This document shows positions 18,647 through 61,971 of a stretch of 64,000 bases of DNA, piece by piece; position 1 is the first letter of the stretch; each line of letters begins with the position of its first letter. The stretch lies in the IMG/VR virus record IMGVR_UViG_3300030019_000008; one strand, given 5' to 3'. This DNA comes from a virus. A program made the position numbers and the translations under genes. Below the pieces are notes generated by a model. The model saw nothing but the letters and a program-made list of their open reading frames with translations. It was not told the DNA's origin and did not search any database.

Positions 18647-18708
18647 GCAAAAAAAGAAATAAGCTCATACCCATACCACCTAGAGACACATGTCTCTAGG
18701 TGGTATGG
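18647..18708 (-). terminator. 17-bp hairpin plus displaced U-tract (CTTATTTCTTTTTTTGC)
   Basis: CCATACCACCTAGAGAC-ACAT-GTCTCTAGGTGGTATGG (18671-18708). The tail at 18647-18663 is 16/17 identical to 57078-57094. Confidence 0.75.
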
Positions 18709-18717
18709 AATGGGTAC

Positions 18718-19287
18718 TTACTTCTTCGGATCAAACTCTTTCTTGCGATCACCTTGCAGGTATTCGCGGATGTGAGTCAGGCCTTCGATCAACCAATTGC
18801 AGTGAGTGCTGTGAACCAGAATCCTGTTGGGGCCATGCAGGTAGTACGACTTGAAAGGCAGAGACGACGATACCAGCAGGTATTCGAGATTGGGGTTTTG
18901 GGTGATTTTGTAGTAGCTGGCCAGAATGATTTCACGACGGAAGTTTGCAATCTTGACTTGCTTGGTCTTTTGCTTACCATACTGGTGAGCTGACAGACCG
19001 GAGATGCTGCGAAGTTGGTCATGCTGTTGGCGATTCTCCGCACATACCCAACGCCAGAATCCTTCAAGCGTCCGGAAAGGTCCGTAGATAGGGTGTGTGA
19101 AAGGAGTTTCAGCCAGAGTGCCAAGCAACTGTCCGAGTTCCGTACGGGAAGCATCATCGATGTTGATGTGGGTCACTCCGTCATTTTCAACTTCGCTCAA
19201 ACTGAAGTTTGCCATGTCTTCGACGAGCGAGATCTCTTCGACAGGTGCTGATGGATTTCTTGGTTTTGCAAGTTGTTTTCCGGACAT
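18718..19287 (-). CDS. NADAR-like (T4 gp30.3/YbiA fold) putative ADP-ribosyl hydrolase, paralogue 1
   Basis: Motifs PFTHPIYGPFRTLEGFW, ISGLSAHQYGK and KITQNPNLEYLLVSS resemble NADAR F.s.E and K..QN..L...L..T. Clear paralogue of 22738-23211. Confidence 0.6.
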   Translation of the reverse strand: MSGKQLAKPRNPSAPVEEISLVEDMANFSLSEVENDGVTHINIDDASRTELGQLLGTLAETPFTHPIYGPFRTLEGFWRWVCAENRQQHDQLRSISGLSAHQYGKQKTKQVKIANFRREIILASYYKITQNPNLEYLLVSSSLPFKSYYLHGPNRILVHSTHCNWLIEGLTHIREYLQGDRKKEFDPKK

Positions 19288-19296
19288 AATTTTCTC

Positions 19297-19704
19297 TTAT
19301 TGTTCATCATCAGGCATGTCTTCGAGGATCACAGGAATACTCAGATGTTCCCACTCCGGGCAATCCCTACGCTTCCACCTGACGCTAAATTCCACATCAG
19401 TGATCTGGAGAATTCGGAACCCTTTACAGAGTACCTTCCAGGTCATCTTTCTACGTCCAAACTCCTTATTGAGATTCCCTTTATTGGAACCTCTGTCCTT
19501 ACGGTTATCCGGAATACCGTGACTGGGGTTTACCAAATACTGGTAAACCAAAGAAGTCCAGATGCTAGTTTTCGGAACAATCCGTCCAATCATCATTCGG
19601 AATAACCGACTGAGTATTCCTCCAATACCCAAACAGTTCCCGACTAGATTGTCGCCATCTGAGATGATCTTCTCTATTGGATCAATCTCGTCATTTATAC
19701 TCAT
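19297..19704 (-). CDS. Hypothetical protein (135 aa)
   Basis: ATG after an AGGAG SD, in tandem with neighbours. Confidence 0.7.
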   Translation of the reverse strand: MSINDEIDPIEKIISDGDNLVGNCLGIGGILSRLFRMMIGRIVPKTSIWTSLVYQYLVNPSHGIPDNRKDRGSNKGNLNKEFGRRKMTWKVLCKGFRILQITDVEFSVRWKRRDCPEWEHLSIPVILEDMPDDEQ

Positions 19705-19712
19705 GCTTACTC

Positions 19713-20243
19713 CTATACGAGGAAATAGGCAATCCTTGTCAACGTCTGGCAAAGATGGTCTACCAAACGCAAGCCTTGTCTGTGATAATAGCTCTCAAGT
19801 GCTTTATCACTGAGTTTTTGGTATTCTTCAATGAATTGAAAAATAGCTTTTTGTAGGGCTGTCCACTGAACTGTAACATCCAGGTAAGCACCTTTATGTG
19901 ACACAAAGAACTTTATCAGGTCGGTATGCTGTGTCTCGCGATACCGATCAGTATTTACAGCATCTCCTTTCCTCATCAAGTGCCTGAAGTCATTCAGATG
20001 ATTGATCACAGAATCTATGGATGATGCGACTGCTTCAAATTCGTATTGAGATTTGAGAAAGTCCTCCTTTTCAATTATGTATTGTGGATCTATCGCACGA
20101 CAGATTTCCAGAGCAGAATCCATCAGGATTTCGAAATCTCTCTGGGATGTGAGCGATATATCATGTGAGCTGACGCGTCTCAGTATCGAGCGCAAGTTTG
20201 CGCGATAAAGAAACCGTCTAACAGCATAGAAAAATCCTTTCAC
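19713..20243 (-). CDS. Hypothetical protein (176 aa)
   Basis: GTG start with a GGAGG SD, first gene after the putative early promoter. Confidence 0.75.
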   Translation of the reverse strand: MKGFFYAVRRFLYRANLRSILRRVSSHDISLTSQRDFEILMDSALEICRAIDPQYIIEKEDFLKSQYEFEAVASSIDSVINHLNDFRHLMRKGDAVNTDRYRETQHTDLIKFFVSHKGAYLDVTVQWTALQKAIFQFIEEYQKLSDKALESYYHRQGLRLVDHLCQTLTRIAYFLV

Positions 20244-20260
20244 TCTTTACCTCCACTGTA

Positions 20261-20279
20261 AAGTAATGAGTGTTTGAAA
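20261..20279 (-). promoter_or_regulatory. Putative early (vRNAP) promoter TTTCAAACACTCATTACTT
   Basis: 18/19 identical to 61953-61971. Resembles the phiKZ early motif (TTTaA...TATATTAC). Confidence 0.65.
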
Positions 20280-20308
20280 AAACTTAGAGCATACAATTGG
20301 AGTCAATC

Positions 20309-20836
20309 ATGACAGTCGAAGTTTTCCCGGCAGATGAGCCTCAAGAGCTCCCAACTGCTGAAGTTCTGGATGCAGAAGTCAAACCTGAAGAATCTCAGAA
20401 TGTTCAGGATGAGGATCAAGAAGTTCTGAAATATACCCAAGGCCTGCGTCGTCAATTTGTCAATAGTCTCATCAATAAAGACGGTAAGGTCAGTGATGAC
20501 AAGGTTGACAGATCATTCTTTCTGCAAGCCCTGGGTGATATGGATAGAGCGGCTCTGGGCAACATGCGTATCAAGGCCGACAAGAAAGCCGGGGATGCTG
20601 GCGTTCAAGCTGCTGCCATGATTGCCAAGCTTCTTAAAGACCCGGTTCTCGCAGCAGCTCGCAGAGCCATTGCTCCTATAGAGCGAGAAATTCCGGTTCT
20701 TCCGGAGGAATTTCCTGATCCTGATGTGGTTCCTGGGGAAGCTCAGTTTCACGCGGATGTTCTTGATTCTCAGGACTTCTTTCCGACGGAGAAGGAGGCT
20801 TCGGAGACTCGTCCTGCGATTGCGGATGAGGATTAG
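20309..20836 (+). CDS. Hypothetical acidic protein (175 aa)
   Basis: GGAG SD before ATG 20309, helical acidic sequence. Confidence 0.7.
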   Translation: MTVEVFPADEPQELPTAEVLDAEVKPEESQNVQDEDQEVLKYTQGLRRQFVNSLINKDGKVSDDKVDRSFFLQALGDMDRAALGNMRIKADKKAGDAGVQAAAMIAKLLKDPVLAAARRAIAPIEREIPVLPEEFPDPDVVPGEAQFHADVLDSQDFFPTEKEASETRPAIADED

Positions 20837-21599
20837 TCATCTCCCCATTCAGAGCAGCTCTCACCTTCTGCGCAGCTCCATCGTCCAACCAGGTCAGATC
20901 TTCAGGCCTGATGATGGAGTAGAACTTGGTATCGACCACGTTGAGCTGAATCAAAAGCATCAGTTGCTGTTGCAGTGCTTCGAATGGATTGAAGGATTTC
21001 TTGGATTCTTCTTTCCATTCCTCTACAGAGAGCTTTTTCTCGAAGAAGATCGAAGGCACTATCAAAATGGTGTTGCGACAGGGCTTGGTGATCAAGTCAG
21101 GAATGACATTGTTGAGCCACTCACCGTACTCGTACTTGACCACTGCGACGTACTCAATCAGCTTGTCGTGATCGAACTCCTCAGGAGAATGACTCACAAA
21201 CTGAATATCGACCTCGTCGCCGAGCCAGTAGTTCATGGCTCCAGCATAAGCGATCTGAACCTCCTCATCGAACTCGACAGGGTAGGTATTGATCGTAAGC
21301 TTTGCTCGCACTCCCATCCCGTTGATACTCTCATTGGCTATCTCAGCAATGAAAGACTTCAGGATAAACACCATCGAAGTCATTCTCGATTGACCGACAG
21401 TCTCAATACCACGCCTTTTATAGAGGTCGTGGTATTGAGACTCGTCTATGCCGTCGAACACATCCGTGATACGTTCGTGGTATCCATTCTTGAGGATACG
21501 AACAGCGGCTTCTTCGGAAATGCTGGCGATGGTGGCAATGCGAAAGTCAAGTAGTGCATCGATGTCAACATAGATGCTCAGAGCTTTTGGTTCTTTCAT
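20676..21599 (-). CDS. Hypothetical protein with HAD-like N-terminal DxD motif
   Basis: SIYVDIDALLD motif and GAGG SD. The last ~54 codons overlap the convergent gene. Confidence 0.6.
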   Translation of the reverse strand: MKEPKALSIYVDIDALLDFRIATIASISEEAAVRILKNGYHERITDVFDGIDESQYHDLYKRRGIETVGQSRMTSMVFILKSFIAEIANESINGMGVRAKLTINTYPVEFDEEVQIAYAGAMNYWLGDEVDIQFVSHSPEEFDHDKLIEYVAVVKYEYGEWLNNVIPDLITKPCRNTILIVPSIFFEKKLSVEEWKEESKKSFNPFEALQQQLMLLIQLNVVDTKFYSIIRPEDLTWLDDGAAQKVRAALNGEMTNPHPQSQDESPKPPSPSERSPENQEHPRETELPQEPHQDQEIPPEEPEFLAL

Positions 21600-21615
21600 T
21601 GCCTAATCCTCGCTA

Positions 21616-22290
21616 TTACAGGGTACTCTTCAGATGCATACCCGTGAGCACAGTTTTCAAAGTAACCGTGCTTGTGGTTTCAGTACCCAATTGATCAAGT
21701 GCATCCAGACGAACACCACCAGTATTGCTGATGGAGTTGTTCATGGCGTTGAATCCTTCCAGATCCCCACCCCGATACTTCATGAACTCCACCAGTGCTT
21801 TGGAAAGACCCAAAGCTTGCATCACCTGGACTTCAGGGTACGAGATCTTCGCTCCCTTGGAATTGCCCGTAGGCTGACCAGAGAGATTGTCGATGGATTT
21901 GTTGTCCGAAGGGATTGAGATCTTCTTGACAAGAAGCTGAGCCTGGCGTCTGATCGGCAGATCCAGAATCATGTATTTCTCAGGTGTCTTGTACCGCACA
22001 CCTGATGCAGGGTTGACAATCCACAGATGTTCGAAGAAGTCATGCCCCATCTCTTTTGCAAGAGCGAGGTTGCGTTCCACTGAAAGAGCTTTCTCTCCCA
22101 TGTTGGGCATCTGGTAGGATAAACCTTCTCCATCATTGGCTTCCAACTCACGAATCCAGACTTCAAACTCCTTGTCAGACATGCTAGCAAACATTTGCTT
22201 ATACATGTCGACATTGAATTTGTCACCTGGAACGATCTTGGCTATCCATGTCAACACTACGGCCTCTGCAGCTTTTCGATTCCCTGGCAT
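21616..22290 (-). CDS. rpoB: Virion RNA polymerase beta C-terminal subunit (phiKZ gp149-like)
   Basis: YMILDLPIRRQAQLLVKKIS...LSGQPTG..KGAKISYPEV...LVEFMKYRGGD aligns with the beta C-terminus (YMLKL..DDK..TQQPLGG..GEMEV..LQEMLTVKSDD). GGGAG SD. Confidence 0.85.
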   Translation of the reverse strand: MPGNRKAAEAVVLTWIAKIVPGDKFNVDMYKQMFASMSDKEFEVWIRELEANDGEGLSYQMPNMGEKALSVERNLALAKEMGHDFFEHLWIVNPASGVRYKTPEKYMILDLPIRRQAQLLVKKISIPSDNKSIDNLSGQPTGNSKGAKISYPEVQVMQALGLSKALVEFMKYRGGDLEGFNAMNNSISNTGGVRLDALDQLGTETTSTVTLKTVLTGMHLKSTL

Positions 22291-22352
22291 TTGTATCTCC
22301 CGTGTAATTGCCAGATACAAAAATCCGGCTAACCATTCATAGAATGATCGCT

Positions 22353-22745
22353 TCACGCCTCAGGACGTCTGTGGTGCAGGCGCTTTAATCCGTGGTCAAC
22401 CGCCAAGGAACAAGGATTGCGTTCCAAGATAGCTACCAGACCGATGAGTTCTTTTCGAACGAAGTCACCAAAGTAACCATCGTCTCGATCCTTGGCAGAT
22501 GCTTCAGCTCGATCCCTGAAGAGGATATCGTGCACTATGTACAGTGCCAAATACCTTTTATGCGATCCGTACTCTGCTAGATTCATCACACCATTGTAAA
22601 CGAGCTGGATATCTAGAGGCATGCTCTTGAAACATCTTGACAGAGCAGATAGCTTGGCATCGATATCGACACACTCAGCAAAACCATCCCTGCACAGATC
22701 GTAAAAACGCACCTGAGTATCAAGCACCTCTTTCATTTTAGACAT
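22353..22745 (-). CDS. Hypothetical protein (130 aa)
   Basis: Start moved to MSKMKE, coupled to the upstream stop codon. Confidence 0.6.
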   Translation of the reverse strand: MSKMKEVLDTQVRFYDLCRDGFAECVDIDAKLSALSRCFKSMPLDIQLVYNGVMNLAEYGSHKRYLALYIVHDILFRDRAEASAKDRDDGYFGDFVRKELIGLVAILERNPCSLAVDHGLKRLHHRRPEA

Positions 22746-23211
22746 AGTCAATGCTTCCGTATTTTTCTTTAAGTTCTTCTCTGATCTGCACATACATCGG
22801 AGAGAGCCAATCAATGCCTTTCGGATGAAAGGGTTTCGGTGTGGGACCTTGTCTGTCAACGTAGTAGTGCTCGAAAGGCAGATGGGATTTGATGGTCAGT
22901 TTCAGAAGACGAGGGTTTTGTTCAATCTTCATCTTAGCTGCATCGTGGATCAGACGCAGAAAGTCTGAACGTTCCACTCGAGCGAAGGTGCGGCCAACGC
23001 GCTTCGCTGTGAGTCCCACAAGGTCTTTGAGTTCCTCATGCTTACAACCACTGCGAACGTAATACCAAAATGCTTCCAGGCTCGCAAAATGACCATAGTG
23101 AGGATGATTGAAGCCATAGTGAGAGAAGTGGGATAATGCTCGACCCAATTCAGTCTTACCATGGCTATAGATGTTGATATGTGATACCCCATCATCCGAA
23201 ACGTGTGACAT
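22738..23211 (-). CDS. NADAR-like putative ADP-ribosyl hydrolase, paralogue 2
   Basis: GVSHINIYSHGKTELGRALSHF...GHFASLEAFW...LVGLTAKRVGR...KIEQNPRLLKL, matching NADAR LSNF, E and K..QN motifs. Confidence 0.65.
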   Translation of the reverse strand: MSHVSDDGVSHINIYSHGKTELGRALSHFSHYGFNHPHYGHFASLEAFWYYVRSGCKHEELKDLVGLTAKRVGRTFARVERSDFLRLIHDAAKMKIEQNPRLLKLTIKSHLPFEHYYVDRQGPTPKPFHPKGIDWLSPMYVQIREELKEKYGSIDYV

Positions 23212-23213
23212 GA

Positions 23214-23453
23214 CTAAATCCTTTTAGGCCTTGTCCAGGCACGGGCGGTTCTATAAAAGACCCATCTGGATGCAGAACAAGTCGGGCCATAGAGTGGTCT
23301 GTTCAGGTCTCCGAAGTACCTGCGCATCTGTCTGGGAGACATGTGGAAGAGCCTTACTACACCGAGCTCAGACATCCTATCGCAGTGACCTTGTCCTCGG
23401 ATGGTGTGATGATGTCCCTTTTTATTCCTGAATTCTTTTGTTCTGGGCTTCAC
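23214..23453 (-). CDS. Small basic hypothetical protein
   Basis: 79 aa, fills the operon gap exactly and overlaps the upstream stop. Confidence 0.5.
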   Translation of the reverse strand: MKPRTKEFRNKKGHHHTIRGQGHCDRMSELGVVRLFHMSPRQMRRYFGDLNRPLYGPTCSASRWVFYRTARAWTRPKRI

Positions 23454-24277
23454 TTTTTCATCCTTTCACGCTCGTTGAGCACCTTGACAGACTTGCCATG
23501 GTCTTCCAGATACTGAACAACAATACCGAGCAGTATGTGACGATGACAAAAGTCAGCAGTAGGACAGTAACACCCAAGAGTAAACTTAGGCAAAGACAAA
23601 AGGTGATCCCAGTACTTAGCAAACTGGATCTTCTTTTCATCGACGACCTTTCGATAGGCTGCCTCATATTCACCCTCAGTGAGTTCTCCTCGCTTCCATG
23701 CACCCACCAACTCATAAGGTGGAGAGAAGGCTTCTATGCCGCTTTTAGCAGTGGTATCGACTACCTTGAAGCCTTCTTTCTTCCAATCTCTCCAACTAGC
23801 GAGCTGCATGGTTCCGACAACATGATCGAAGTGCTCGGGCTGGTTAGTGTGAACGACACTGAATGTCTTACCCAGCTTTTGCATGCAGTCGATCATGTGC
23901 TTGGTGCCACGGGAGATATCGTCCCAGAATGCGATCAGGTGCGTGGCTGTGTCTGCCATCTGTTCATTTCGAATGAACCCAGCACCCTTACCATACGTAT
24001 CCCAATCAGCAGGATGCGGCAGGTATCTGAGCTCAGGTCGTTCTTGACAATACTGCACCACCATGGCGTCGGCACCGCGCTTTGCCATACCTGAGTAGAA
24101 GAGAATGCGCTGGCCTTCGAATTGCTTGATGAACTCTTCGAGCACCTGCACAAACTCTTCATAATTGTCGTATGTTCTTGACCCGGCCACAATTAAGCGA
24201 ACCGGGAAGATCTCATACAAATCTTCGACGATGTCGGTGTTCAGCTGATCTTGATCTGGGTATTTTTCAGCAACCAC
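23450..24277 (-). CDS. YspA-type SLOG domain fused to a DUF488/YeaO-like domain
   Basis: N-half LIVAGSR, SGMAKRGAD, ADWDTYGKGAGFIRNEQM, SRGTKHMI. C-half FSPPYEL...Y...Y...TLGCYC....CHRHIL. Confidence 0.8.
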   Translation of the reverse strand: MVAEKYPDQDQLNTDIVEDLYEIFPVRLIVAGSRTYDNYEEFVQVLEEFIKQFEGQRILFYSGMAKRGADAMVVQYCQERPELRYLPHPADWDTYGKGAGFIRNEQMADTATHLIAFWDDISRGTKHMIDCMQKLGKTFSVVHTNQPEHFDHVVGTMQLASWRDWKKEGFKVVDTTAKSGIEAFSPPYELVGAWKRGELTEGEYEAAYRKVVDEKKIQFAKYWDHLLSLPKFTLGCYCPTADFCHRHILLGIVVQYLEDHGKSVKVLNERERMKK

Positions 24278-24567
24278 GGCACAACCCCTTGTTCAAAGTG
24301 ACGAAGCCAGTCGATGAGACGACCATCATCAATCAGGTGCGTGCGCGCATCCGAGCTATCCACGGATGACTCGCACATGTACATCCGGAATGTCCGGTTG
24401 ATATAGAAGCGCTGTTCGGGGTGCGAGAGCGATTCATCGATCGCTTGGGGAACGAAGTTCTCGGCGTACTCTTCCCAGTCGGCAGGTTCAACATGACCAG
24501 CTTCCTTGAGAATGTTGGTGAGCTGCGTGTGCAGGGGGACATCGGGGTTGTAGGTGGTCAGCGGCAT
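24241..24567 (-). CDS. Hypothetical protein (108 aa)
   Basis: ORF in the tightly packed minus-strand operon. Confidence 0.65.
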   Translation of the reverse strand: MPLTTYNPDVPLHTQLTNILKEAGHVEPADWEEYAENFVPQAIDESLSHPEQRFYINRTFRMYMCESSVDSSDARTHLIDDGRLIDWLRHFEQGVVPWLLKNTQIKIS

Positions 24568-24947: not shown

Positions 24948-24963
24948 GTGGATTCTCCATTAT

Positions 24964-24992
24964 ACCCATACAGGGGACTCCCCTGTATGGGT
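24964..24992. terminator. 13-bp perfect hairpin after uvsX
   Basis: ACCCATACAGGGG-ACT-CCCCTGTATGGGT, next to a GCA-TAA stop. Confidence 0.6.
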
Positions 24993-24994
24993 GC

Positions 24995-26533: not shown

Positions 26534-26645
26534 GATTACCTCGATGGTGTAATGTATCTATGCATAGAATCCACCTGAATAGTAAAAATTGACCATTGAA
26601 ATAGTCTGGTTAATAATACCCACTTTCCACATGTAAGAGGATTCT

Positions 26646-33549: not shown

Positions 33550-36051
33550 ATGAAATTATTGAGTATCGAACTCTCAGGATACGAGAGAATGGCAATCAGT
33601 GGTTCGACTAAGATCAAGATTGATTTCAGTCAACCCTACCAACTCATCCTGGGTAAAAATGGTTCTGGTAAGTCGTCTCTTCTGGAAGAGCTCTCACCGC
33701 TTCCTGCTCACCAGTCAAACTATTCGAAAGGCGGATACAAAATTGTTGTGATTGAACATCGCGGCAAGACGTATCGACTGGAGAGCAGGTTTGGTAAAGA
33801 TATCAAGCACTTCTTTATTACTGAGGATGAAGAGAACCTCAATGAAGGCGGCACTGTCACGGTTCAGCGTGAGTTGGTGAAGCAGCACTTTGGTATCACG
33901 CCTGAGATCCACAAACTGCTATCAGGCCTTGATCCGTTCACGGAGATGGATACGGGTAAGCGTCGTGAGTGGTTTACCAAGCTATCTGTGGCTGACTACA
34001 CATACGCAGTCACTCTTTACAATCGCATTAAGGATTCTCACAGGGACACACTGGGTGCATTGAAGATTGCAAAGAACAGGCTGGTGGCTGAAACCAACAA
34101 GACTGCTAAGCCGGAGGATATCGAAAAGCTCGAAGCTGAAGTCGTCAGCATCAACAACGAGCTTCGACTGCTCTATGAGAACAAGAGTATCGACCACGGC
34201 GATTACAATGAGTTGCTTGGTGCAGAAGCTACTCTCAGTGAGAAGATCGAAAAGATCATCGCATACATTGCAGACACTGCTGCGAGCTTTGCTAAAACCA
34301 GGTTGTTTACTAACATTGGTGAAGCTGAGCAAATGTACGCCAGGCTTGAAGAAGCGCAGGTTATTCTCAAGACGAAGATCAAGGAAGCAGTTGAGCGTAT
34401 TGAAGAGATGCGTTCTGAACACCGTAGGGCAATGAGTGCATCGGCTACAAATGTGGGGGATTTGCAAACCCGCAGTGAAGCACTTAAGAAGTTGATCGCT
34501 TCCACTCTGAGCTCACGGGTAATCAGTATCCCATTTGATTCCGGTATTGCTGATGCCAAGCAAAGACTGGATGCATTTGACCAGATGCACGATGGCTTCT
34601 TGGAATACTCTTCTCGATTGATTGCTGACCCTGACCGGACAGCTACATCCGAGGTTGAGCGTGCTCTTGTCGAGAAGATGGCTGCTCGAGACCTCACGAG
34701 CAAGATGATCCTTGACGATGAACGAAAAGTCAAAGATCAGATCCTGCATATGGAACATCAAAAAGATGGTGGTGAGACTGAATGCCCGAAATGTGCACAC
34801 AGATGGATTCCTGGCTATTCTGCCAAGACATACGAGGATGCCAAGATCAAGCTCTCTTCAATCCTTGCTGCAAAAGAGAAGATTGGAACTGAGATCAACT
34901 CTATCCGCACTGAGCATAATCGCGTTACAGCCATCCTGTTCGCTCAAAGTGAGATCAATAGGTACATGCAGGCATGGCCTAACTTCGGGCCGTTCTGGAA
35001 GTATCTGTCGGCCAAGAATGTGTATCGCAACGATCCTCAATCTATCGGATCTGAACTGCAGCATTTGAGGCATGACCTCTGGCTCGAATGTGAAGCAAGA
35101 GAGCATGAGATTCATCTTGAGAAAATCAGCGCTGAGCTGGCTATCATTGCTAACTCCGACCTGCAAAACACGACGCAGGTTATCAAGAAGCATGATGAAC
35201 TTGAAGACCGCATCTCCAACCTCACTCAGGATTTGGTTGCTGTTCAGGATAAGCTCAAGCGTTACAAGTTCTATATCGAAAGTTGGTATGGAACTCAAAA
35301 GGCTTTGGAGGAAGCTGTAGCGATCTGTACTGAACGTGAGAAGAATGTGGATGAAACTATCCACTCGATACGTCAGACGATCATTGAGGGCTGTATTAAG
35401 CGTCACCAGATCACTCTGGGTATGAAAGAGAAAGAGCTCAACGATATCAGAATGCAAGCTGGTATTGTCAGAGATCTTCAGAGACAGATTGAAGGTCTCA
35501 CCAGCAAAGTCGAAGAGTTCAAAGCCGTGCTGGCGGCTCTTTCTCCCACAGAAGGTTTGATCGCTGAAGGGATGTTGGGGTTCATAAAAGTTTTTGTAGC
35601 AAAGATGAACCATCTTATAGGAAAGACATGGAGTTATCCGCTTGAGGTAGTACCATGTGGATTGAACAGTGAAGGTAGTGTGGATCTTGATTACAAGTTT
35701 CCGCTTATTTCAGAAGCCAGCAATAGACCCGTTCCTGACGTAGTTGTCGGTAGTCGCGGAATGAAAGAGATCGTCAATCTCGTTTTCAGGGTTGTTGCAT
35801 TGCAATATCTTGGCTTGGCGGATGTTCCGCTCTACCTTGATGAATTTGCCTCAGCGTTAGATAGCTCCCATCGCAGATCCAGTGTGGATCTGATCAAGAT
35901 GATGATGACTCAGATGTCCTTTAGCCAGATGTTTATGGTGAGTCATGATTTTTCGCAGTATGGTGCTTTGTCAGATGTGGAAGTTTGTGCATTGACAGAA
36001 GACAACATTGTTTTACCTCCGAAGTATAACGAACACGTTTCCTTCACCTGA
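33550..36051 (+). CDS. sbcC: SbcC/Rad50 SMC-family ATPase (phiKZ gp165-like)
   Basis: Walker A GKNGSGKS, coiled coils, Zn-hook CPKC, GSRG signature, LYLDE and VSHD. Confidence 0.92.
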   Translation: MKLLSIELSGYERMAISGSTKIKIDFSQPYQLILGKNGSGKSSLLEELSPLPAHQSNYSKGGYKIVVIEHRGKTYRLESRFGKDIKHFFITEDEENLNEGGTVTVQRELVKQHFGITPEIHKLLSGLDPFTEMDTGKRREWFTKLSVADYTYAVTLYNRIKDSHRDTLGALKIAKNRLVAETNKTAKPEDIEKLEAEVVSINNELRLLYENKSIDHGDYNELLGAEATLSEKIEKIIAYIADTAASFAKTRLFTNIGEAEQMYARLEEAQVILKTKIKEAVERIEEMRSEHRRAMSASATNVGDLQTRSEALKKLIASTLSSRVISIPFDSGIADAKQRLDAFDQMHDGFLEYSSRLIADPDRTATSEVERALVEKMAARDLTSKMILDDERKVKDQILHMEHQKDGGETECPKCAHRWIPGYSAKTYEDAKIKLSSILAAKEKIGTEINSIRTEHNRVTAILFAQSEINRYMQAWPNFGPFWKYLSAKNVYRNDPQSIGSELQHLRHDLWLECEAREHEIHLEKISAELAIIANSDLQNTTQVIKKHDELEDRISNLTQDLVAVQDKLKRYKFYIESWYGTQKALEEAVAICTEREKNVDETIHSIRQTIIEGCIKRHQITLGMKEKELNDIRMQAGIVRDLQRQIEGLTSKVEEFKAVLAALSPTEGLIAEGMLGFIKVFVAKMNHLIGKTWSYPLEVVPCGLNSEGSVDLDYKFPLISEASNRPVPDVVVGSRGMKEIVNLVFRVVALQYLGLADVPLYLDEFASALDSSHRRSSVDLIKMMMTQMSFSQMFMVSHDFSQYGALSDVEVCALTEDNIVLPPKYNEHVSFT

Positions 36052-54017: not shown

Positions 54018-57000
54018 ATGGCAGGGAAAACTCCGTCCGTCCCATCACTGGTTAACCAGATGGGTCAGGGAAAAAGCGTCCACGCTTTGAGCTTGATAGG
54101 TAATGATCCAGGACTGGCTGCTGTGCTCTCGAAGACAGTTACTGGACGTGAGCAGCCAATGTATGACAATGCCGGCAATCGTAAGATTCCGATGCCGGAT
54201 GTCAACATCTTCAAAGATATTTCCAAGAAGCAGGTTGACAACATCCGTGATTCTGAAACGGTCTTGCAACTGCTCCCCGACATTGCTCTATCGAAGCAGA
54301 TTTTGATTGCATCTGTACAGTCACCGCGAGACATGAGCAGTGGTGAGATCACCATCTCTGGGCCTGAAGGCATTCTGCCGACTTCCGCTTCCGCTGCCGT
54401 CATCGATGTAATCAAAACATTCTTCGATCAGGACTACAAGATTAAACCGAAGCTCGCAGAAATCCTCGGCAATGTCTTGTTCGATCGTGGGTCACATCCT
54501 ATTGCGGTGATTCCTGAAAATTCACTCGATGAAGTGATCAACTCAGCTGGACGAGTGAGTACTGAGTCACTTTCCGGATTCGTGACTGAGAATGGCAACT
54601 TTGCACCTCTGGGCATTCTTGGACCGAACAAAAAGCAGCAAAAGAAAATCAATGCTGCTCTGCGCAAGAACAACGTTGGCATCGCATTTGAAACAATGCA
54701 GATGTACAATAGCCAGATCAACACTGGTGCCATCGATGCTGGAACGAACATCAGCATGGAAGGCTTCCAGAAGAATCTGGAAGCAATTGATAAGCAAGTT
54801 GTTGAATCACTCAAGCACCGGCTTTCCAAGACCGAAGCGGGTCGCTCAGCACTTGAAGCCATTCGTGCAGATAGGGCGAAAGTCGATGAGGCGGAATTGT
54901 CGACGTATCTCTCCGTCACCGACAACTTCAATGTGATGAAGGTGCCACTGATCAATGAGCGTATTCGGCAGCAGTTTGTGGCAGATCGCATCGATGGCAT
55001 TTCCACTGAAGCATTCCGTTTGACCGATGCTGAGCTGAACAAGCTCAAGGCTGCATCGGGTGATGATGTCAGACAGGATGCTAAGGAAGCAGCCAAGCAA
55101 GCAGGGAGCGATAAGCTCACCGATCAGAAGCTCACGAACAAAGTCTATCGTGATACGGCAACATCGCACAAGCCTATTGCATTCCTGAAGACTCAAGAGC
55201 AACTGGGTCGTAAGTCGATTGGCTGCCCGCTTATTCTGGATCTGCCATCTGAATCGGTGATTCCTGTTCACATCCCTGGTGCCCCTAGCCAGCACATCGG
55301 CTATTATGTCCTGCTCGATGGAAACGGCTATCCTCTCAACATTGAGTTGCAGGATGACTATATCAGGGACATGAGTTCTCGCCTGACGGGTAATACGGAT
55401 AACTTCCCATCCGCAATGCTCAACAAGGTTGATAGCATGGTCACGGGTGAGACCATGAACTTCAGGGATCGGATGCGTGTTGACTACAGCATTCGTGCTT
55501 ATGGAGACATGGTTGAAAAGGACCTGCTCGAGCGACTGCGCAATGGTGTGTTCAACAATGGCGTAGCGCTGGGTCGTAACGATGAACTCTATCGAATCAT
55601 GCTGGCACGCACTCTGGCCAAGCAATCGACTCAGCTCTTGTTCATCCCGATTGAGCTTATGACGTACTTTGCGCTGAACTATAACCGCAATGGCACCGGT
55701 AGGTCTTTGCTCGATGATATGCGGATCTTGCTCTCGTTCCGCGTGATGGTGATGTTTGCCAACGTTATGGCATCGATTAAGAACTCCATTGGTCGCACTG
55801 ATGTGAAGATCAAGCTCGAGGAAACTGACCCTGATCCCTACAAGACGATCGAAGTCACGATCCATGAGCTCATCAAGTCTCGCCAGCAGTACTTCCCTCT
55901 GGGCATCAATGCTCCGACTGAAGTGGCTGACTGGGTTCAGCGTGCGGGTATGGAATTCACATTCGAAGGCCACCCTGAGATTCCTGACGTCAACATCGAC
56001 ATTGGTGAGAAGGCTACGAACTATACGAAGCCCGACACCGATCTCGAAGAGATGCTGCGTAAGCGCTCGATCATGGGAGCCTATCTGACTCCTGAAATGG
56101 TTGATCTAGGATTGGGAGGTCCGGAGTTTGCGACATCCATCGTGAACAGTAACATCATGTTCGCCAAGCGCGTCAAGAAGATCCAGGATGAGATCATGCC
56201 GCAGATGGCTGAGCACATGAAGAAGATCGTGCTCAATAACCAAACGCTGATGCACAAAATTCATGAGATCATCATGAACAACGTCGGCACCATCCGCATT
56301 GATGAGAAGGACATCAATGTGACCGTCAGTAGTGATCCTGCTGAGAAGTCCGATGAGCAGCTCAACCTGGAACGCAAGTTGGTTTATAGGGTGGCATACG
56401 ACTTCATCAATGGCTTGGATGCCACGCTGCCTTCGCCCGACAACGTCACTATCGAGAACCAGGCAACTGCTATCGATACCTTTGTCAAGGTACTGGACCC
56501 GATGCTCGATAACATCATCAGCAGCGAGTTCATGACTGAAGAGTTTGTAGGTAATGCTTCCAGTTTGGTTGATCCTTACAAGAAGATGCTTCGCGCTTAC
56601 TTCATGAGGAAGTTCTTCAACCAGAATGGAATGCTGCCTGAGCTCTCCAGCATTACGGCAACAGACTCCAAGGGCGCGCTCATCAATGATGTCTATTCCG
56701 AACAACAGACCCACGTGCAGGATATCGTCAAACACTTTGTGGCTGCCGCTAAGGATGCCAAGAAGTTCAAGGATGATGTCAATAAGGTGATGGCTGCTGA
56801 TCTGGAAGTCACTGAACCTGCTGAAAATACATCGTCTGAACCCAGCAGTGATGAGACTGGTGGTGAGGGCGGTGGCGATGAGTTTGGCTTTGGTGGTGAG
56901 GGTGGAGATGATTTCAGAGGTGGTAGTGGTGAGCCTGAAGAACCCGAAGGCGAACCGAATGAAGAACCTGCTCCCGATGAGACCGCTCCTGACGACTCCG

Positions 57001-57077
57001 AACCTGAATCTGAAAAGAAACCTGAGGACAATGAAAAGCCCGAAGGTGGAGATGAAGACAAAAGTGGATTGGTTTAA
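54018..57077 (+). CDS. Portal protein (phiKZ gp129-like)
   Basis: About 1019 aa, GAGGA SD, GTGRSLL portal-like motif, PSESVIPVH, acidic C-tail. Synteny. Confidence 0.75.
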   Translation: MAGKTPSVPSLVNQMGQGKSVHALSLIGNDPGLAAVLSKTVTGREQPMYDNAGNRKIPMPDVNIFKDISKKQVDNIRDSETVLQLLPDIALSKQILIASVQSPRDMSSGEITISGPEGILPTSASAAVIDVIKTFFDQDYKIKPKLAEILGNVLFDRGSHPIAVIPENSLDEVINSAGRVSTESLSGFVTENGNFAPLGILGPNKKQQKKINAALRKNNVGIAFETMQMYNSQINTGAIDAGTNISMEGFQKNLEAIDKQVVESLKHRLSKTEAGRSALEAIRADRAKVDEAELSTYLSVTDNFNVMKVPLINERIRQQFVADRIDGISTEAFRLTDAELNKLKAASGDDVRQDAKEAAKQAGSDKLTDQKLTNKVYRDTATSHKPIAFLKTQEQLGRKSIGCPLILDLPSESVIPVHIPGAPSQHIGYYVLLDGNGYPLNIELQDDYIRDMSSRLTGNTDNFPSAMLNKVDSMVTGETMNFRDRMRVDYSIRAYGDMVEKDLLERLRNGVFNNGVALGRNDELYRIMLARTLAKQSTQLLFIPIELMTYFALNYNRNGTGRSLLDDMRILLSFRVMVMFANVMASIKNSIGRTDVKIKLEETDPDPYKTIEVTIHELIKSRQQYFPLGINAPTEVADWVQRAGMEFTFEGHPEIPDVNIDIGEKATNYTKPDTDLEEMLRKRSIMGAYLTPEMVDLGLGGPEFATSIVNSNIMFAKRVKKIQDEIMPQMAEHMKKIVLNNQTLMHKIHEIIMNNVGTIRIDEKDINVTVSSDPAEKSDEQLNLERKLVYRVAYDFINGLDATLPSPDNVTIENQATAIDTFVKVLDPMLDNIISSEFMTEEFVGNASSLVDPYKKMLRAYFMRKFFNQNGMLPELSSITATDSKGALINDVYSEQQTHVQDIVKHFVAAAKDAKKFKDDVNKVMAADLEVTEPAENTSSEPSSDETGGEGGGDEFGFGGEGGDDFRGGSGEPEEPEGEPNEEPAPDETAPDDSEPESEKKPEDNEKPEGGDEDKSGLV

Positions 57078-57146
57078 GCAAAAAAAGAAGTAAGTGAAAG
57101 AAATGCACTGCTACTACCCGTGAGGGTAGTAGCAGTGCATATGCCG
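57078..57146. terminator. Bidirectional 17-bp hairpin with a different tail on each strand
   Basis: ATGCACTGCTACTACCC-GTGA-GGGTAGTAGCAGTGCAT (57103-57140). The + tail is (T)ATGCCG and the - tail is CTTACTTCTTTTTTTGC. Confidence 0.8.
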
Positions 57147-57154
57147 GAAAGGCG

Positions 57155-59011
57155 TCAGATGTCGACGATGAGGACTTGCTCATGCGGGTTGAGCCAGCTC
57201 TTGGAGAGCTCGAAGCGATAGCCGTCAGCCGTCTCAAGCACATACCGCACGTTCTCGCGGTAGTTCTTCATGATGGTGATGGCCAGATTGAACAACAGCG
57301 GAGTCTTCTCGCGAATGACCAGAGTCGGAGTACCGGCCTGAAACGCGAAGCCGAGCTCGTTGGAGTTGAGACTGATGACCGCCGTGCGGACTTCAGTACA
57401 CAGGGCGTTGAGTTCCGGAACATTGTCCGATTCATAGCCCAGTGCATCGAGAAAGACCGAACGATTGTCCGTACCGAACACCGTCACTGCTTGAGCGACC
57501 TTGCGGTTGAAGTACTTGAGGAAGGCATTGCCGATCGACAGGCCGTAGCTCGCGCAGATGTGTGCTTCGACCTCTTCGAAATCACTCTCGAAGTACTCGA
57601 TGCGCATCTTGGGCAGGCCCACGTTCACCCGAAGCGCCAGATTGGTGATATCAGTGAGGCGCTTGTTGATGATGGTGCGGGAGAGCATCGGCAGTCCCAC
57701 TTCCTTGCTCATGAGCTTCTTGTAGTAGAAACCCAGACGCTCGAGAGTGGTGGACTCAGCCATGGCGTTGAGCAACTCGACCTGATCGATGCTGGTGAAC
57801 TTGACCAGCTCAAGCAGCAGGCTCGACCGAACATAAACGTCGAGCGTCGGCACCAGCAGACGCTTCTGTTCATATTCAGCGCGCCGATAACCCCAGACCG
57901 AATCCAGACCAAACTCCAAAGCCTGGGTAGGCTCATTGAAGTTCTCGAGGAAACGAGGTTTCTCAGGCTCACGAGGACGGCCGCCATTGGATTCTTCGAC
58001 GACGTCGATGATCCGCTCTTGGTTGTCATTGATTGCCTTGCGGATTGCCTGAATGCTGCCAGCAGGCAATTCGCGACTGAGATGGTCTGTGCCGAAGGTT
58101 GCGGCCAGGTTATGCCGAGCTTGTTCCATGTCACCTTCCTTAATGCTTTCGAACTTGAAGTAACGTACTTTCTTGTTATCGTTCCCCAACACCACAACCG
58201 GCACAATCGTTTCAACAAACGGGTCGAATGCCGTGGGGTGGGGATTATCCGGATCTTGGGGCGGGTACTTCATGGCCTCGGAGACCGGCAGGTTGCGCAA
58301 TTCAGCGTTGCAGTCGGATGTCACACTTTCAGCAGCTGAACCAGGAACAACCGTCATGTCCCTGTACACCGGGTCAGTAAACCCGATATCGCTGCCGCGG
58401 CGCATGACTGGAGCTACTTGTTTTTCAGCGACTGGTGCAGAGCCAAACTGCTGCATACCGGCACGCGCTTCGGTAAAGGAGCTACCGCCATTGCCGGCTC
58501 GACTACCACCACCGGAACGACGCGAATTGAAGAAGGGGTCCGATTCACCACTGCGACGGTCATCCCGATAGTCACGTTCACGATCGCGACCACCATAACC
58601 GCCACGCCGATCCTCATAACTGCGAGGAATACGCCCGGCTCGCCACTCAGCCAGATCATCCATCATTCCGGCGTAGGTCTCCTTGAGCTCATAGCACGAA
58701 TCTTCTTCGGCGCGACTCATCCGAACGCGCATTTCGTTGGCCCAGGCACCGATGGTTGCTTCGAGAACGTTGCTGCACACTTGTTCAAGAGCACGAGCAT
58801 CGTTACTCACCTTTCCGGTGTGAACGCACAGCAGGAAGATGTCTGCCGAGTTCTGAACCAGCTTGTCGAAGAGCTGGTTGCGGAAGCCACTAACTGAGGC
58901 TTCCCTGGCAAACTCCTCTCGGGGTACGGATACTCCCCCTCTCACACTGGCATCAAGCAGATCTCCGATGATATCGGAAGTGGTCTGCATAAGTTGCTGA
59001 TCTCTTGCCAT
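57155..59011 (-). CDS. Hypothetical protein (618 aa) with RGG/RD-rich linker, coupled to the nvRNAP gene
   Basis: TAATG overlap with the upstream gene, strongly G/C-ending codons. Confidence 0.75.
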   Translation of the reverse strand: MARDQQLMQTTSDIIGDLLDASVRGGVSVPREEFAREASVSGFRNQLFDKLVQNSADIFLLCVHTGKVSNDARALEQVCSNVLEATIGAWANEMRVRMSRAEEDSCYELKETYAGMMDDLAEWRAGRIPRSYEDRRGGYGGRDRERDYRDDRRSGESDPFFNSRRSGGGSRAGNGGSSFTEARAGMQQFGSAPVAEKQVAPVMRRGSDIGFTDPVYRDMTVVPGSAAESVTSDCNAELRNLPVSEAMKYPPQDPDNPHPTAFDPFVETIVPVVVLGNDNKKVRYFKFESIKEGDMEQARHNLAATFGTDHLSRELPAGSIQAIRKAINDNQERIIDVVEESNGGRPREPEKPRFLENFNEPTQALEFGLDSVWGYRRAEYEQKRLLVPTLDVYVRSSLLLELVKFTSIDQVELLNAMAESTTLERLGFYYKKLMSKEVGLPMLSRTIINKRLTDITNLALRVNVGLPKMRIEYFESDFEEVEAHICASYGLSIGNAFLKYFNRKVAQAVTVFGTDNRSVFLDALGYESDNVPELNALCTEVRTAVISLNSNELGFAFQAGTPTLVIREKTPLLFNLAITIMKNYRENVRYVLETADGYRFELSKSWLNPHEQVLIVDI

Positions 59012-60627
59012 TAAGCACTTTCCTTTCCATTGACACGAATCATAGCCTGCACACTGTCGAGCAATTCAACCAATTCCGGATTCCTCACCACCACTCCTTT
59101 CTCGTTGAGGCGAACCAGGGGATTGATACGCGACCGTCCGCTAGGTTCAGCTTTCGGGATATTGAGATAACCACCCACCTCAGCCACTGAGGCATGCAGC
59201 TTCTGTGATTCACCACCTCCAGCGTGTCCCTTGCCACTGGGGCCAGTTTGCAGTTTTGCCTGCGGGATCAAGATAGAGGTGAATTTGAGGGCCATGTTGT
59301 CACCAGAGTACGACAGGGCTGAGAGCTCCCTGTGGTTCTTAGTGATCTTGTAAATCCTGCCGGGCTTGAGATGCCGCTTGAAGACAGCCTCGACATCACG
59401 AAATGTCGCGCTCTTACGCGGGTCCTGCAAGTCATACAGAGTGTACACGATCGCTTTGGTCACATCGAACATCAGGTGCGGAAGAACCGTCACCCTCTTG
59501 TCATACATCGAGTACGCACGATCCGGATCAGTGAGCATCCAGTCATTATAGCGATCGATGATGACGGCCATCAGCTCAAAAAAGTTCTTGACATGAATTC
59601 CGATGTCGCGAAGTGAGAGCTCAATAGGTTTGTCGAGATAACCATCCAGTGATGCAATGTGCTTTTTCATTTCATCGAGCAGATAGCCCGTGGGACGATT
59701 GCCAGTGACATTGATCTCACCGAGCAGCACCAGCCAGTTGGCTCGTGACGATACGTCTTCCACCCGCATTCTGTCCGGGAAATGGTCTACGACATAGAAG
59801 AAACCCGCGACCAGGTTCCGAGCCATGGCGTTAAAGTCAGACTTGCGAATCGCTATCCGGATCAGCGTGGGTGTGTACAAACGCCCTAAGCAGGTACTCG
59901 GAGCTCTTTTGAGCGATTCGCATATTACCCATTCGGATTCAGGATACACTTCATGAGTGATTTCCCGTTCACCGACAATAGGCGTAATTTTGGCAAACTT
60001 TTCGAAGGCTTCAAACAACCCATACTTGCAGAACAAGTAGTGCGCCAGTGATGCAAGAGCGCGTGTAGTTGCTGAGTCTTTTTTCTGTCTTTCCGATCTG
60101 TTGTAGGCCGAAGCCCAACACACTTGTACTGGCTCGTCGACGCCGTTACAGACAAAAGTGTGGGAGATGCGCTTGAAAGTTACCTTCCCGCGAATCACAC
60201 CAACGAATACGGAATTGAGTCCAAGAGAAATCACCTGGTCCGTCAGAACAGGAGATATCACGTGACGCGATCCTGAGATATGCATCACACCACCAATAGC
60301 GCAGAACGGCAGATACAACGGAACTTTGAGTTCGTGCTCCACACCATTCTTTTCCACGTAACTGAATTGATACTCGTTCAGATAGACGTCGCTTCTGGCG
60401 AAATCGTAGACTCCAGACTTTGTTTTGTGGCGGTATTCCTCCATAGGTGTGCACCTACGGTAGCCTATGTACGACAGACTCTCGGGAAAATCCGCACTTA
60501 TCAATTTGAAGATTTGATCGATATAGCTATCCACTTGCTTGAGTTCATGGAACGCTACACCCTCCGCAATCAGTGGATTGATTTTCGGAGTATCACTGTC
60601 GATCAATGCTATCAAATCGGGGCTCAT
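59011..60627 (-). CDS. rpoB: Non-virion RNA polymerase beta-like subunit (phiKZ gp123-like)
   Basis: 538 aa with LYLPF...G.MHISGS..VISPVL (beta N-terminal motif) and LHAS..E...PSGR..INP. Two genes downstream of the capsid gene, similar to phiKZ. Confidence 0.8.
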   Translation of the reverse strand: MSPDLIALIDSDTPKINPLIAEGVAFHELKQVDSYIDQIFKLISADFPESLSYIGYRRCTPMEEYRHKTKSGVYDFARSDVYLNEYQFSYVEKNGVEHELKVPLYLPFCAIGGVMHISGSRHVISPVLTDQVISLGLNSVFVGVIRGKVTFKRISHTFVCNGVDEPVQVCWASAYNRSERQKKDSATTRALASLAHYLFCKYGLFEAFEKFAKITPIVGEREITHEVYPESEWVICESLKRAPSTCLGRLYTPTLIRIAIRKSDFNAMARNLVAGFFYVVDHFPDRMRVEDVSSRANWLVLLGEINVTGNRPTGYLLDEMKKHIASLDGYLDKPIELSLRDIGIHVKNFFELMAVIIDRYNDWMLTDPDRAYSMYDKRVTVLPHLMFDVTKAIVYTLYDLQDPRKSATFRDVEAVFKRHLKPGRIYKITKNHRELSALSYSGDNMALKFTSILIPQAKLQTGPSGKGHAGGGESQKLHASVAEVGGYLNIPKAEPSGRSRINPLVRLNEKGVVVRNPELVELLDSVQAMIRVNGKESA

Positions 60628-60644
60628 TGCTACCCTTTCTAAAA

Positions 60645-61802
60645 CTATAGGAATGCCTTTGCTGCCATCACTACTGCACCAATTGCACCAATGATAAATG
60701 GCAACTGCTTATACGCTTCGTTCTCTTCCTTTCTCACTTCGCCCTTCTCACGTCTATCATCGCCCCGCTCTTTACGATCCTCGGAACGATCCTTTCTCTC
60801 AGCGCTCTTGGCATCGAGCTTATCTTTGAGCTTTTGAAGTCTGCGGTCAGCTTCGGCTCTTTCCTTCTCCCACTCCAGCTTATCCAGTTCCCAGGCCCGC
60901 TTAGCTTCAAGAATCTCTCTTTCATGTTGCTTTACGGATATCTGATACTTGGATGGATCTTCGCCATACGTACGGGCCTCATTCTCAGTCGAAAACACAC
61001 CTTTCTCAGCTAAGTTGTCTGGTGGACAATAGCCTACAGGCTCTTTACCAACTCCCTCATCCTCAACACTGGCATAGATGTAGAGTCCTGGTCTTCGACT
61101 TGGATCACACTTAGGCTTCAGGCGAACCACACATCCATCAAGAAAGTAGAACTTTTCATCAAGAGATGGTTTATCAACGTACAGACTATAAATCAGTCCT
61201 GTAAAATTTTCACAAGCACTAGATGATAGATAGTTCCTCATCTGACGACTTGTACCATCGTTGACGAATGGGTGCGCTACGATCTCATGAGGCTTATCCG
61301 TCTTGATCAGATAAACGTCATGCGCTTCCAGATAGGCGGTCTTTTTACCTGCTGGAAAGATCGAGTTTACTTTATACCGGGTTCGCAACCTGAAGAAGTC
61401 CATGTGCAGAGATTGGATTTGCTTGAGTTTACTGGCGTCGTCTCCAGCCTCAGAATACCCATTGTACTTCTTTCTGATCTCCTGCAACATAGGAGTCTTA
61501 AACTCCAGGTTGTCACTTGTGACACCTAGGTCATTTGTCGTGCCTAGGAATGAATTGTTTCCACGGAGATCTTCAATGATCTCGATGTCGCCGGTGATCT
61601 CACCCAGGCAAAGTGGTTCCACTTTCATAACAGGACCTTGCCGAAAGGCAATATAAATCGGATGACCGCTCCGGTTTATGATGCCCACAGACATGGACGC
61701 AGCAGCAGCAGGACCTTTATCCCATGCAGCACATGAAAAAGATTCGGTAACGCCAAGATGCGACGAGATAATTTCGTCGTGAGAGAGTTCATGATAGATC
61801 AT
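60645..61802 (-). CDS. Conserved hypothetical protein (phiKZ gp122-like), coiled coil plus C-terminal hydrophobic anchor
   Basis: 385 aa with a charged helix followed by LPFIIGAIGAVVMAAKAFL. Start uncertain. Confidence 0.65.
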   Translation of the reverse strand: MIYHELSHDEIISSHLGVTESFSCAAWDKGPAAAASMSVGIINRSGHPIYIAFRQGPVMKVEPLCLGEITGDIEIIEDLRGNNSFLGTTNDLGVTSDNLEFKTPMLQEIRKKYNGYSEAGDDASKLKQIQSLHMDFFRLRTRYKVNSIFPAGKKTAYLEAHDVYLIKTDKPHEIVAHPFVNDGTSRQMRNYLSSSACENFTGLIYSLYVDKPSLDEKFYFLDGCVVRLKPKCDPSRRPGLYIYASVEDEGVGKEPVGYCPPDNLAEKGVFSTENEARTYGEDPSKYQISVKQHEREILEAKRAWELDKLEWEKERAEADRRLQKLKDKLDAKSAERKDRSEDRKERGDDRREKGEVRKEENEAYKQLPFIIGAIGAVVMAAKAFL

Positions 61803-61952
61803 GTTCTTTGATGCTTTCTAATTCGGGTTTATAGACTAACTGAAAATATCCTCCTCTTCTCGAGTAAGGCTGAGTAAATACACGAAAGCTCCAATCTAAA
61901 ATTTAAGGATGAAAATACAATATTTAATTCCGTTTGCTACAACAACTCTAAT

Positions 61953-61971
61953 AAGTAATGAGTGTCTGAAA
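61953..61971 (-). promoter_or_regulatory. Putative early (vRNAP) promoter TTTCAGACACTCATTACTT
   Basis: 18/19 identical to 20261-20279, upstream of the nvRNAP-subunit operon. Confidence 0.65.

Follow-up and report, generated by a model that had tools for sequence, protein, structure and literature searches.

A phiKZ-type early promoter core and a U-run added to hairpin terminators as putative marks of early gene blocks in an uncultured jumbo phage

An early-promoter core, together with a U-run that appears to be added to a generic hairpin+UAUGYC terminator, probably marks the early gene blocks of an uncultured phiKZ-like, nucleus-forming jumbo phage from peat. This phage is the source of the window, the whole 64-kb stretch of DNA analyzed here. 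Its genome has a G+C content of 49%, and its promoters and hairpins were counted over 149 kb of the 214-kb source contig. The motifs, their copy number, strand and conservation, and the association with early-promoter blocks were observed directly. A 19-mer would act as the lineage's early promoter core, the counterpart of the phiKZ virion-polymerase promoters, and would head minus-strand transcription units, one of which encodes a subunit of the second (non-virion) polymerase. A 17-mer would be the U-rich end of an intrinsic-type terminator made up, in this order, of a long hairpin, a short stretch that often includes the family-wide UAUG, and a pyrimidine run ending in U6-9 and a G. The U-run, which would be added to the generic terminator only in blocks driven by early promoters, may strengthen termination or act as a fail-safe at the end of early units, for instance where convergent late genes follow.

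The early-type promoter and the operons that it heads

The 19-mer TTTCARACACTCATTACTT was found twice, at 20261-20279 and 61953-61971, each time on the minus strand, where it heads two operons as the initial annotation had described. No additional match was present in the window when up to 3 mismatches were allowed (0.03 expected). The assertion that this motif and the 17-mer are missing from other gene boundaries held within the 64 kb and failed for the genome, which has 10 more promoter copies outside the window as well as the core TTCTTTTTT(T)G after other hairpins. A weight matrix run over the 149 kb returned 12 promoter matches, all of which have the orientation of the window's minus strand and precede co-oriented genes; the plus strand gave none. 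Eight strong copies can be aligned over about 35 nt; by this alignment the 19-mer is the core of a longer predicted promoter of about that length. The extended copy P1 (20260-20295, minus strand; TGTATGCTCTAAGTTT-TTTCAAACACTCATTAC-TTT) ends 17 nt 5′ of the GTG start of a 176-aa gene. P2 (61952-61987, minus strand; TCTGTATTCAAAAGAG-TTTCAGACACTCATTAC-TTA) lies between the major-capsid terminator and a gp122-like gene. A further early-type copy is located 120 nt upstream of the gene for chimallin (PF25677).

The early promoters of phiKZ, which are read by the virion RNA polymerase, number 28-32 copies (PMC7598289; Wicke 2021, PMC8244752; Putzeys 2024, PMC10914365), and an equivalent scan of that genome gave 30 matches on one strand and 0 on the other. 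The promoters of both phages are thus present in many intergenic copies on a single strand, and in both they stand ahead of chimallin and of the gp121-125 operon. They share an extended motif of about 30 nt with a TTT block, AGA and an ATTAC core, the latter about 10 nt upstream of the start, which in the peat phage is a predicted one. The core reads CTCATTAC in the peat phage and TATATTAC in phiKZ. When compared with phiKZ TTTAAGATCTATATTAC, 11-12 of the 17 core positions and the spacing are equal, the latter being the same in TTTaAGAtcTATATTAC (phiKZ) and TTTCAGACACTCATTAC (peat phage). The peat-phage motif differs in its upstream box, which is TGCTCTAA-like, and in its lower AT content. In addition, phiKZ (at 120657), FLC9 and PA1C have their own early-type promoter between the capsid gene and the gp121/122 gene, the position occupied by P2. 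The architecture of the 19-mer, its copy number, its strand and its position therefore support the proposal that it represents a phiKZ-type early promoter. In IMG/VR, exact copies of the promoter core were found 5 times, which is not above the estimated chance number, and in unrelated contexts.

Operon 1 starts with the 176-aa gene (19713-20243, minus strand), the GTG start of which follows a GGAGG. Its product is 50% identical (E value 3e-41) to that of the gene found at the same place in L034, which belongs, with L006, to a relative sharing 59-77% protein identity with the peat phage. Genes 2 and 3 (18718-19752, minus strand) code for proteins of 135-151 aa and 189 aa (PHROG 652). In operon 2, a leader of about 150 nt separates P2 from the start of a 385-aa gene (60645-61802, minus strand) that is weakly gp122-like (E value 9e-7 to phiKZ gp122). 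The following gene (59011-60627, minus strand) encodes a 538-aa gp123-like non-virion RNA polymerase subunit (PHROG 2943, E value 4.5e-145). The presence of this subunit, already noted in the initial annotation, was borne out by a full-length alignment with phiKZ gp123 at 32% identity (E value 2e-81). The last gene (57155-59011, minus strand; 618 aa) was assigned to the gp124 position because of synteny only, and a BLASTP comparison of its product with phiKZ gp124 gave nothing significant. One metatranscriptome included three contigs of 151-266 nt, all of them within this 618-aa gene. A megablast of both operon regions against the phage collection and a comparison of the window with Rfam gave no match, and a search of IMG/VR seeded with peptides of the gp123-like protein turned up no relative.

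The predicted terminators of the two operons and their tails

Both operons end as had been described, with a perfect 17-bp hairpin (18671-18708 and 57103-57140) located 7-8 nt 5′ of a shared 17-mer. This sequence, CTTAYTTCTTTTTTTGC, has two minus-strand copies, at 18647-18663 and 57078-57094, which are identical at 16 of 17 positions; no other match with up to 3 mismatches was found in the window (0.16 expected). The T1 hairpin (18671-18708, minus strand) has a calculated stability of -47 kcal/mol and is followed by GTATGAG and then by the tail CTTATTTCTTTTTTTGC (T7 at 18649-18655). The T2 hairpin (57101-57142, -36 kcal/mol) lies between convergent genes and would operate in both directions, an arrangement that resembles bidirectional bacterial intrinsic terminators; its minus-strand tail is CTTACTTCTTTTTTTGC (T7 at 57080-57086). 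The minus strand of the 64 kb has no other T7 run.

Like canonical intrinsic terminators, the peat-phage sites combine a stable G+C-rich hairpin with a U-run downstream of it; the perfect 17-bp stems of T1 and T2 conform to the first of these features. The distance between the two elements varies. The U-run begins 0-4 nt after the stem, like in bacterial intrinsic terminators, at four sites: w -19502, w -30904, w 72526 and the one that follows chimallin. Unlike in these, U7-8 is found 13-16 nt after the stem at T1, T2, w -16161 and w -17864, a distance that exceeds the textbook arrangement and counts against an intrinsic-type terminator. In the predicted fold of T1, base pairs form between GAAGAAGUAAGU (18716-18727) and the first half of the tail, and the U-tract is next to the stem only if this extended stem forms. 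T1 is the only site where extra pairing bridges the gap. The T2 stem is directly followed by AUUUCUUU, and U7 begins 16 nt away. A spacer that is always enclosed in a longer stem, as in phiKZ, was consequently rejected as a general rule: it is true for T1 and not for T2, w -16161 or w -17864.

In the relative, the stems have been replaced yet are present, and both tails are kept. The T2 stem was replaced in L006 through compensating changes, and its T7 is kept as CTCTTTTTTTGGC; the T1 tail is kept as CTCTTTTCTTTTTTGTCC in L034 behind an unrelated hairpin. Because the two tails of the relative are unlike one another, conservation does not extend to the exact 17-mer. The orthologous T2 site at the end of the gp123 operon has T7-T9 in RSL2 and FLC9, which are the closest relatives in culture, and in PA1C and phiKZ, and T-runs are kept across six lineages.

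A conserved terminator motif of phiKZ and 201phi2-1 consists of a stem-loop followed by TTAT (BCCYCCCCHWWDGGGRRGGBYTTATKYYGT; PMC10914365, PMC11512511). The terminator of the late major capsid gene, used here as a comparison site (62004-62052, minus strand; hairpin plus TTTATGCCGTG without T-run), is an exact fit to this motif, and capsid-gene terminators with a hairpin and TTTATGYYGT without T-run are also found in phiKZ, PA1C, FLC9 and RSL2. Like the phiKZ motif, most peat-phage hairpins have (T)TATG(C/T)C tails, which often lie within a longer GGCATA...TATGCC palindrome. T1 and T2 differ from it by the extra pyrimidine run ending in T7-GC. The TTAT(G/T)YYGT tail is absent from both in the operon direction, where T1 has the partial GTATGAG and T2 has ATTTCTTTC. 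The two exits of T2 are unlike: the minus-strand one is U-rich, and the plus-strand one, ATATGCCGG, agrees with TTAT(G/T)YYGT.

The TATGC tail had been proposed as a distinct terminator type of late genes. Such specificity was ruled out, because the tail was present at 8 of the 20 hairpins in early-promoter blocks versus 13 of the 26 located elsewhere. Since the tail is equally frequent in early blocks and precedes the T-run (it lies between hairpin and T-run at T1 and w -16161), the T-run is best described as an addition to it.

T-runs in early-promoter blocks

A T-run was defined as at least six T after a hairpin. Early blocks were set by the promoter motif and crude gene calls, not by RNA. 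Early timing, the true ends of the transcripts and a distinct behavior of each polymerase are inferences. In the peat phage T-runs were present after 6/20 hairpins of early-promoter blocks versus 0/26 of the remainder (p = 0.004), an association that was framed on two of its own data points, T1 and T2; leaving out the discovery sites, the numbers were 4/18 and 0/25 (p = 0.025). With the same-strand control alone the association was weak (6/20 versus 0/12, p = 0.06). The local background of T-runs was 4.3%, and a Monte-Carlo test yielded p = 5e-5. An independent repeat in phiKZ gave T-runs at 14/45 early-block hairpins versus 1/40 elsewhere (p = 4.5e-4), and at 5/11 block-final terminators versus 1/25. 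After chimallin, a T7-T9 run is present behind the hairpin in both phages. The phiKZ sites with a T-run include one at about 47890, after gp54, and those without one include 120600 (capsid), 84956, 133070 and 167838. The U-run is thus rarer outside early-promoter blocks in both phages. To our reading this makes the T-run a sequence feature that separates early-block terminators from the rest in two distant phages, and the published work on phiKZ-like phages that we found reports no link between tail type and early blocks.

The correspondence between promoter and tail is partial. The suggested search for co-occurrence of both motifs, extended to the 149 kb, confined T-runs to early-promoter blocks and placed them at only about one third of the hairpins there, 14 of 20 having none; promoter and tail are therefore not strictly matched. 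Seven of 11 promoters reach a T-run within the first two downstream hairpins. Three of five early blocks end on a T-run and two do not, as is the case for the block that starts at promoter w -44931, the final hairpin of which has no T-run. The phiKZ blocks ending at 114270 and 208183 lack it as well.

Possible roles of the U-run

An alternative that we hold only tentatively is a two-polymerase code, in which the virion polymerase would stop only at a hairpin followed by a U-run and the non-virion polymerase at hairpin+UAUGYC. In that case the virion enzyme would read through early-block hairpins that have no U-run, and each early unit would extend from its promoter as far as the next U-run. 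The absence of T-runs from all 26 non-early exits here and from 39 of 40 in phiKZ fits this code, as do the 7 of 11 promoters and 3 of 5 blocks mentioned above. It would also explain T2 and its orthologues, where a single hairpin has a U-run on its early-operon side and TATGCC on its late-gene side, and the published phiKZ-like work that we found assigns no terminator class to either polymerase. However, this support is a correlation, and both polymerases must traverse the early blocks at some time. The w -44931 block and the two phiKZ blocks that close without a T-run also argue against the code, as does the equal frequency of TATG tails inside and outside early blocks.

With similarly low confidence, the code might be extended across nucleus-forming jumbo phages, with an injected virion polymerase that ignores hairpin+UAUG and stops only where a U-run follows. 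If true, the extent of early transcription would be written in the terminator tails, and a single hairpin could close early and late operons through two different signals. Poxviruses have an early termination signal, U5NU, that is read only during transcription by the virion-packaged polymerase. The parallel is limited to the logic of a packaged polymerase that transcribes early genes and of a U-run signal to which late transcription does not respond: the poxvirus enzymes and factors are unrelated, termination is hairpin-free and factor-dependent, and the signals do not belong to the same family. Termination by the two unusual multisubunit polymerases of phiKZ-like phages is essentially unstudied, and recent reviews are silent on terminators. 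The promoter matrix defines a predicted early regulon of an uncultured phage; testable sites exist in culturable phages, namely the end of the gp121-125 operon, the site after chimallin and, as a control, the capsid-gene terminator.

It is improbable that the T-run has a role other than termination, be it as an element upstream of the following promoter, as a U-rich enhancer of the next gene's translation or as a 3′ tail that stabilizes the RNA. The first of these would fit one site here, the T8 at w -16175 that adjoins a weak promoter copy, and four phiKZ tails that fall within the upstream region of the next early promoter. Only about 10 nt separate the T-run from the next ribosome-binding site at w -17864 and at the chimallin site, and downstream of T1 a conserved 17-nt element precedes a gene. 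Nonetheless, T2, w -30904 and w 72526 face convergent gene ends, with no gene or promoter downstream, and the phiKZ sites at 34915, 71403, 126773 and 178307 do likewise; the promoter-element version was rejected at these convergent junctions. T-runs are, moreover, restricted to the 30 nt after hairpins, and therefore a link with the hairpin is argued.

A chance or compositional likeness of two T-rich spacers, to which the divergence of the relative's tails and the 1 in 100 shuffles that gave two loose matches could be ascribed, is hardly credible given the identity of the two tails at all but one position, their equal distance from 17-bp hairpins, their status as the only minus-strand T7 runs in 64 kb and the conservation of T-runs in six lineages.

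The phage and its early-type promoter

The 93-kb piece containing the window matched a 213,966-bp peat-metagenome contig exactly, and a 149-kb composite was assembled from this piece and five further stretches of the same contig (w coordinates extend the window numbering beyond its ends). Among the phage's genes are those for a phiKZ-type major capsid protein, chimallin, tail sheath and split RNA polymerase subunits, and the closest cultured relatives of its gp123-like protein share only 33-38% identity. Judged by this gene set and this distance, the window comes from an uncultured nucleus-forming jumbo phage.

Both copies of the 19-mer (20261-20279, 61953-61971) and of the 17-mer (18647-18663, 57078-57094) were confirmed, all on the minus strand. 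The window contained no looser copies, and a perfect 17-bp hairpin lay 7-8 nt upstream of each 17-mer. Minus-strand T7 runs in the 64-kb window were found only at these terminators, T1 (hairpin 18671-18708) and T2 (hairpin 57101-57142). Alignment of the flanks showed that short motifs, not duplicated segments, are shared. The initial annotation found neither full motif at other gene boundaries; this holds within the window but not in the 149 kb, where the promoter has 12 sites and the tail core recurs.

Similarity around the 19-mer reaches upstream to about 35 nt and comprises a TGCTCTAA-like box, 4-6 nt of any sequence and TTTCArACAcTCATTAC. When eight strong copies were combined into a matrix, it matched the 149 kb 12 times on the window's minus strand and never on the plus strand. 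Copies confirmed on contig sequence lie at w 20263, -1313, -8585, -16210, -18335, -25830, -27291, -44953, -55127 and -63612, and the chimallin and dCMP-deaminase genes are each preceded by one. The early promoter motif derived directly from the phiKZ genome sequence gave 30 matches, all on one strand, consistent with the 28-32 reported (PMC7598289, PMC8244752, PMC10914365). The two motifs have the same spacing and are alike at 11-12 of 17 core positions. A phiKZ copy at 120657, between capsid gene gp120 and gp121, occupies the position of P2 (61952-61987, minus strand), the promoter of the operon whose 538-aa product is the gp123 orthologue, as had been proposed; FLC9 (TTCAAACATATATTAC) and PA1C (TTTCAAATCTATATTAC) also have a version there. 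Spacing, core, strand and orthologous position thus bear out the earlier identification of the 19-mer as a phiKZ-type early promoter, a well-supported reading, and this homology suggests early timing.

A leader of about 150 nt (61803-61951, minus strand) separates P2 from the 385-aa gene; within it, GGAG precedes what may be a 15-codon upstream reading frame, and Rfam gave no match. A candidate open frame with a good ribosome-binding site (20309-20836, plus strand) diverges from the other promoter, P1 (20260-20295, minus strand), and overlaps the end of a 307-aa minus-strand gene by 160 nt. In a 2025 bioreactor metatranscriptome, three short contigs within 57762-58985 were identical to the 618-aa gene and none came from the adjacent capsid gene, at a depth too low for interpretation.

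Terminator tails and T-runs

In the peat phage, most intergenic hairpins are followed by (T)TATG(C/T)C, a tail that corresponds to the terminator motif published for phiKZ, in which TTAT follows a stem-loop (PMC10914365, PMC11512511). The assignment of the TATGC type specifically to late genes did not stand, since TATG(C/T)C follows 8/20 hairpin exits in early-promoter blocks versus 13/26 elsewhere. T1 and T2 are set apart by a pyrimidine run ending T7-GC. The tail core TTCTTTTTT(T)G was also found after hairpins at w -16161, -17864, -19502, -30904 and 72526 and after chimallin, always on the same strand. The hairpin at w -16161 is followed first by TATGCCGCA and then by T8-GC; therefore the TATG-type tail and the T-run are arranged in series.

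Gene-end hairpins of at least 10 bp were scored as positive when a run of at least 6 T occurred within the next 30 nt, and were assigned to an early block when a promoter match lay upstream within the same run of co-oriented genes. T-runs followed 6/20 early-block hairpins versus 0/26 others (p = 0.004), 6/20 versus 0/12 on the same strand only (p = 0.06), and 4/18 versus 0/25 without the two discovery sites (p = 0.025). The local T-run background in early-block spacers was 4.3% (Monte-Carlo p = 5e-5). Counted per promoter, a T-run was present on the first downstream hairpin in 5/11 cases and within the first two in 7/11. The expected co-occurrence of promoter and tail at unit ends was upheld in part: T-runs are confined to early blocks, but 14 of the 20 early-block hairpins lack one. 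In phiKZ, a genome not involved in framing the idea, T-runs followed 14/45 early-block hairpins versus 1/40 others (p = 4.5e-4), and among block-final terminators, those with no promoter after them, 5/11 early versus 1/25 others (p = 0.006).

Conservation of the sites

Both sites are also present in a relative found in a different peat sample (59-77% protein identity). Its T2 stem has compensating changes and is followed by CTCTTTTTTTGGC; at T1 its stem is unrelated, and CTCTTTTCTTTTTTGTCC comes after an 8-nt spacer. Its two tails are unlike each other, and by this comparison the conserved feature is a pyrimidine run ending T6-7 plus G, not the 17-mer itself. Where the gp123 operon ends, the hairpin is followed by CTATGTCTTTA and T9 in phiKZ, ATATGCTTTA and T9 in PA1C, TTCTTTTTTTATGCC in FLC9, and GTCATC and T7-GC in RSL2. 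The capsid-gene terminator of all five phages (these four and the peat phage) is a hairpin with TTTATGYYGT and no T-run. The phiKZ chimallin unit, driven by P54E, which served as an early promoter in PMC4666361, ends with a hairpin, TTATATCTCC and T7.

The stretch from the T1 tail to the 362-aa gene contains TCAATCATTTGACTAAA (18622-18638, minus strand), unchanged in the relative despite only 59% identity of the adjacent protein and a wholly different hairpin; this could represent another class of promoter or leader element.

Possible role of the U-run and structured spacers

In phiKZ, GGCATAA upstream of the stem is the pairing partner of the TTATGTC tail; therefore, the U-run immediately follows a long stem, as in a textbook terminator. 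T1 shows the same extension through GAAGAAGUAAGU paired with GCUUAUUUCUUU. At T2, w -16161 and w -17864, 13-16 unpaired nt separate stem and U-run, a spacing that the extended-stem model does not explain. The best reading is that the U-run would reinforce termination where early units end. A stronger reading, in which the U-run would be required by the virion polymerase only, agrees with the data as a correlation; the published accounts consulted describe several terminator motifs but tie none of them to a temporal class or a polymerase.

At L020:12060-12135 (plus strand; w -27214 to -27285), there is no gap between the TATGC tail of a terminator hairpin and the next early promoter's upstream box (TATGCTGTGCTCAAAGAAATCTCAAACCTACATTAC). 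The same TATGCTCTAA box occurs at P1 and at the copy at w -1297, there without a hairpin. Tail and box may be one element. At L014:12030-12880 (w 72519-73366), 848 nt without a convincing gene end in a textbook bidirectional terminator (A5, hairpin, T10) and are a candidate non-coding RNA. A 551-nt spacer at L016:11600-12150 (w -8083 to -8634) contains several hairpins and a T-rich tail before an early promoter copy, and phiKZ has a comparable structured spacer of 390 nt after chimallin.
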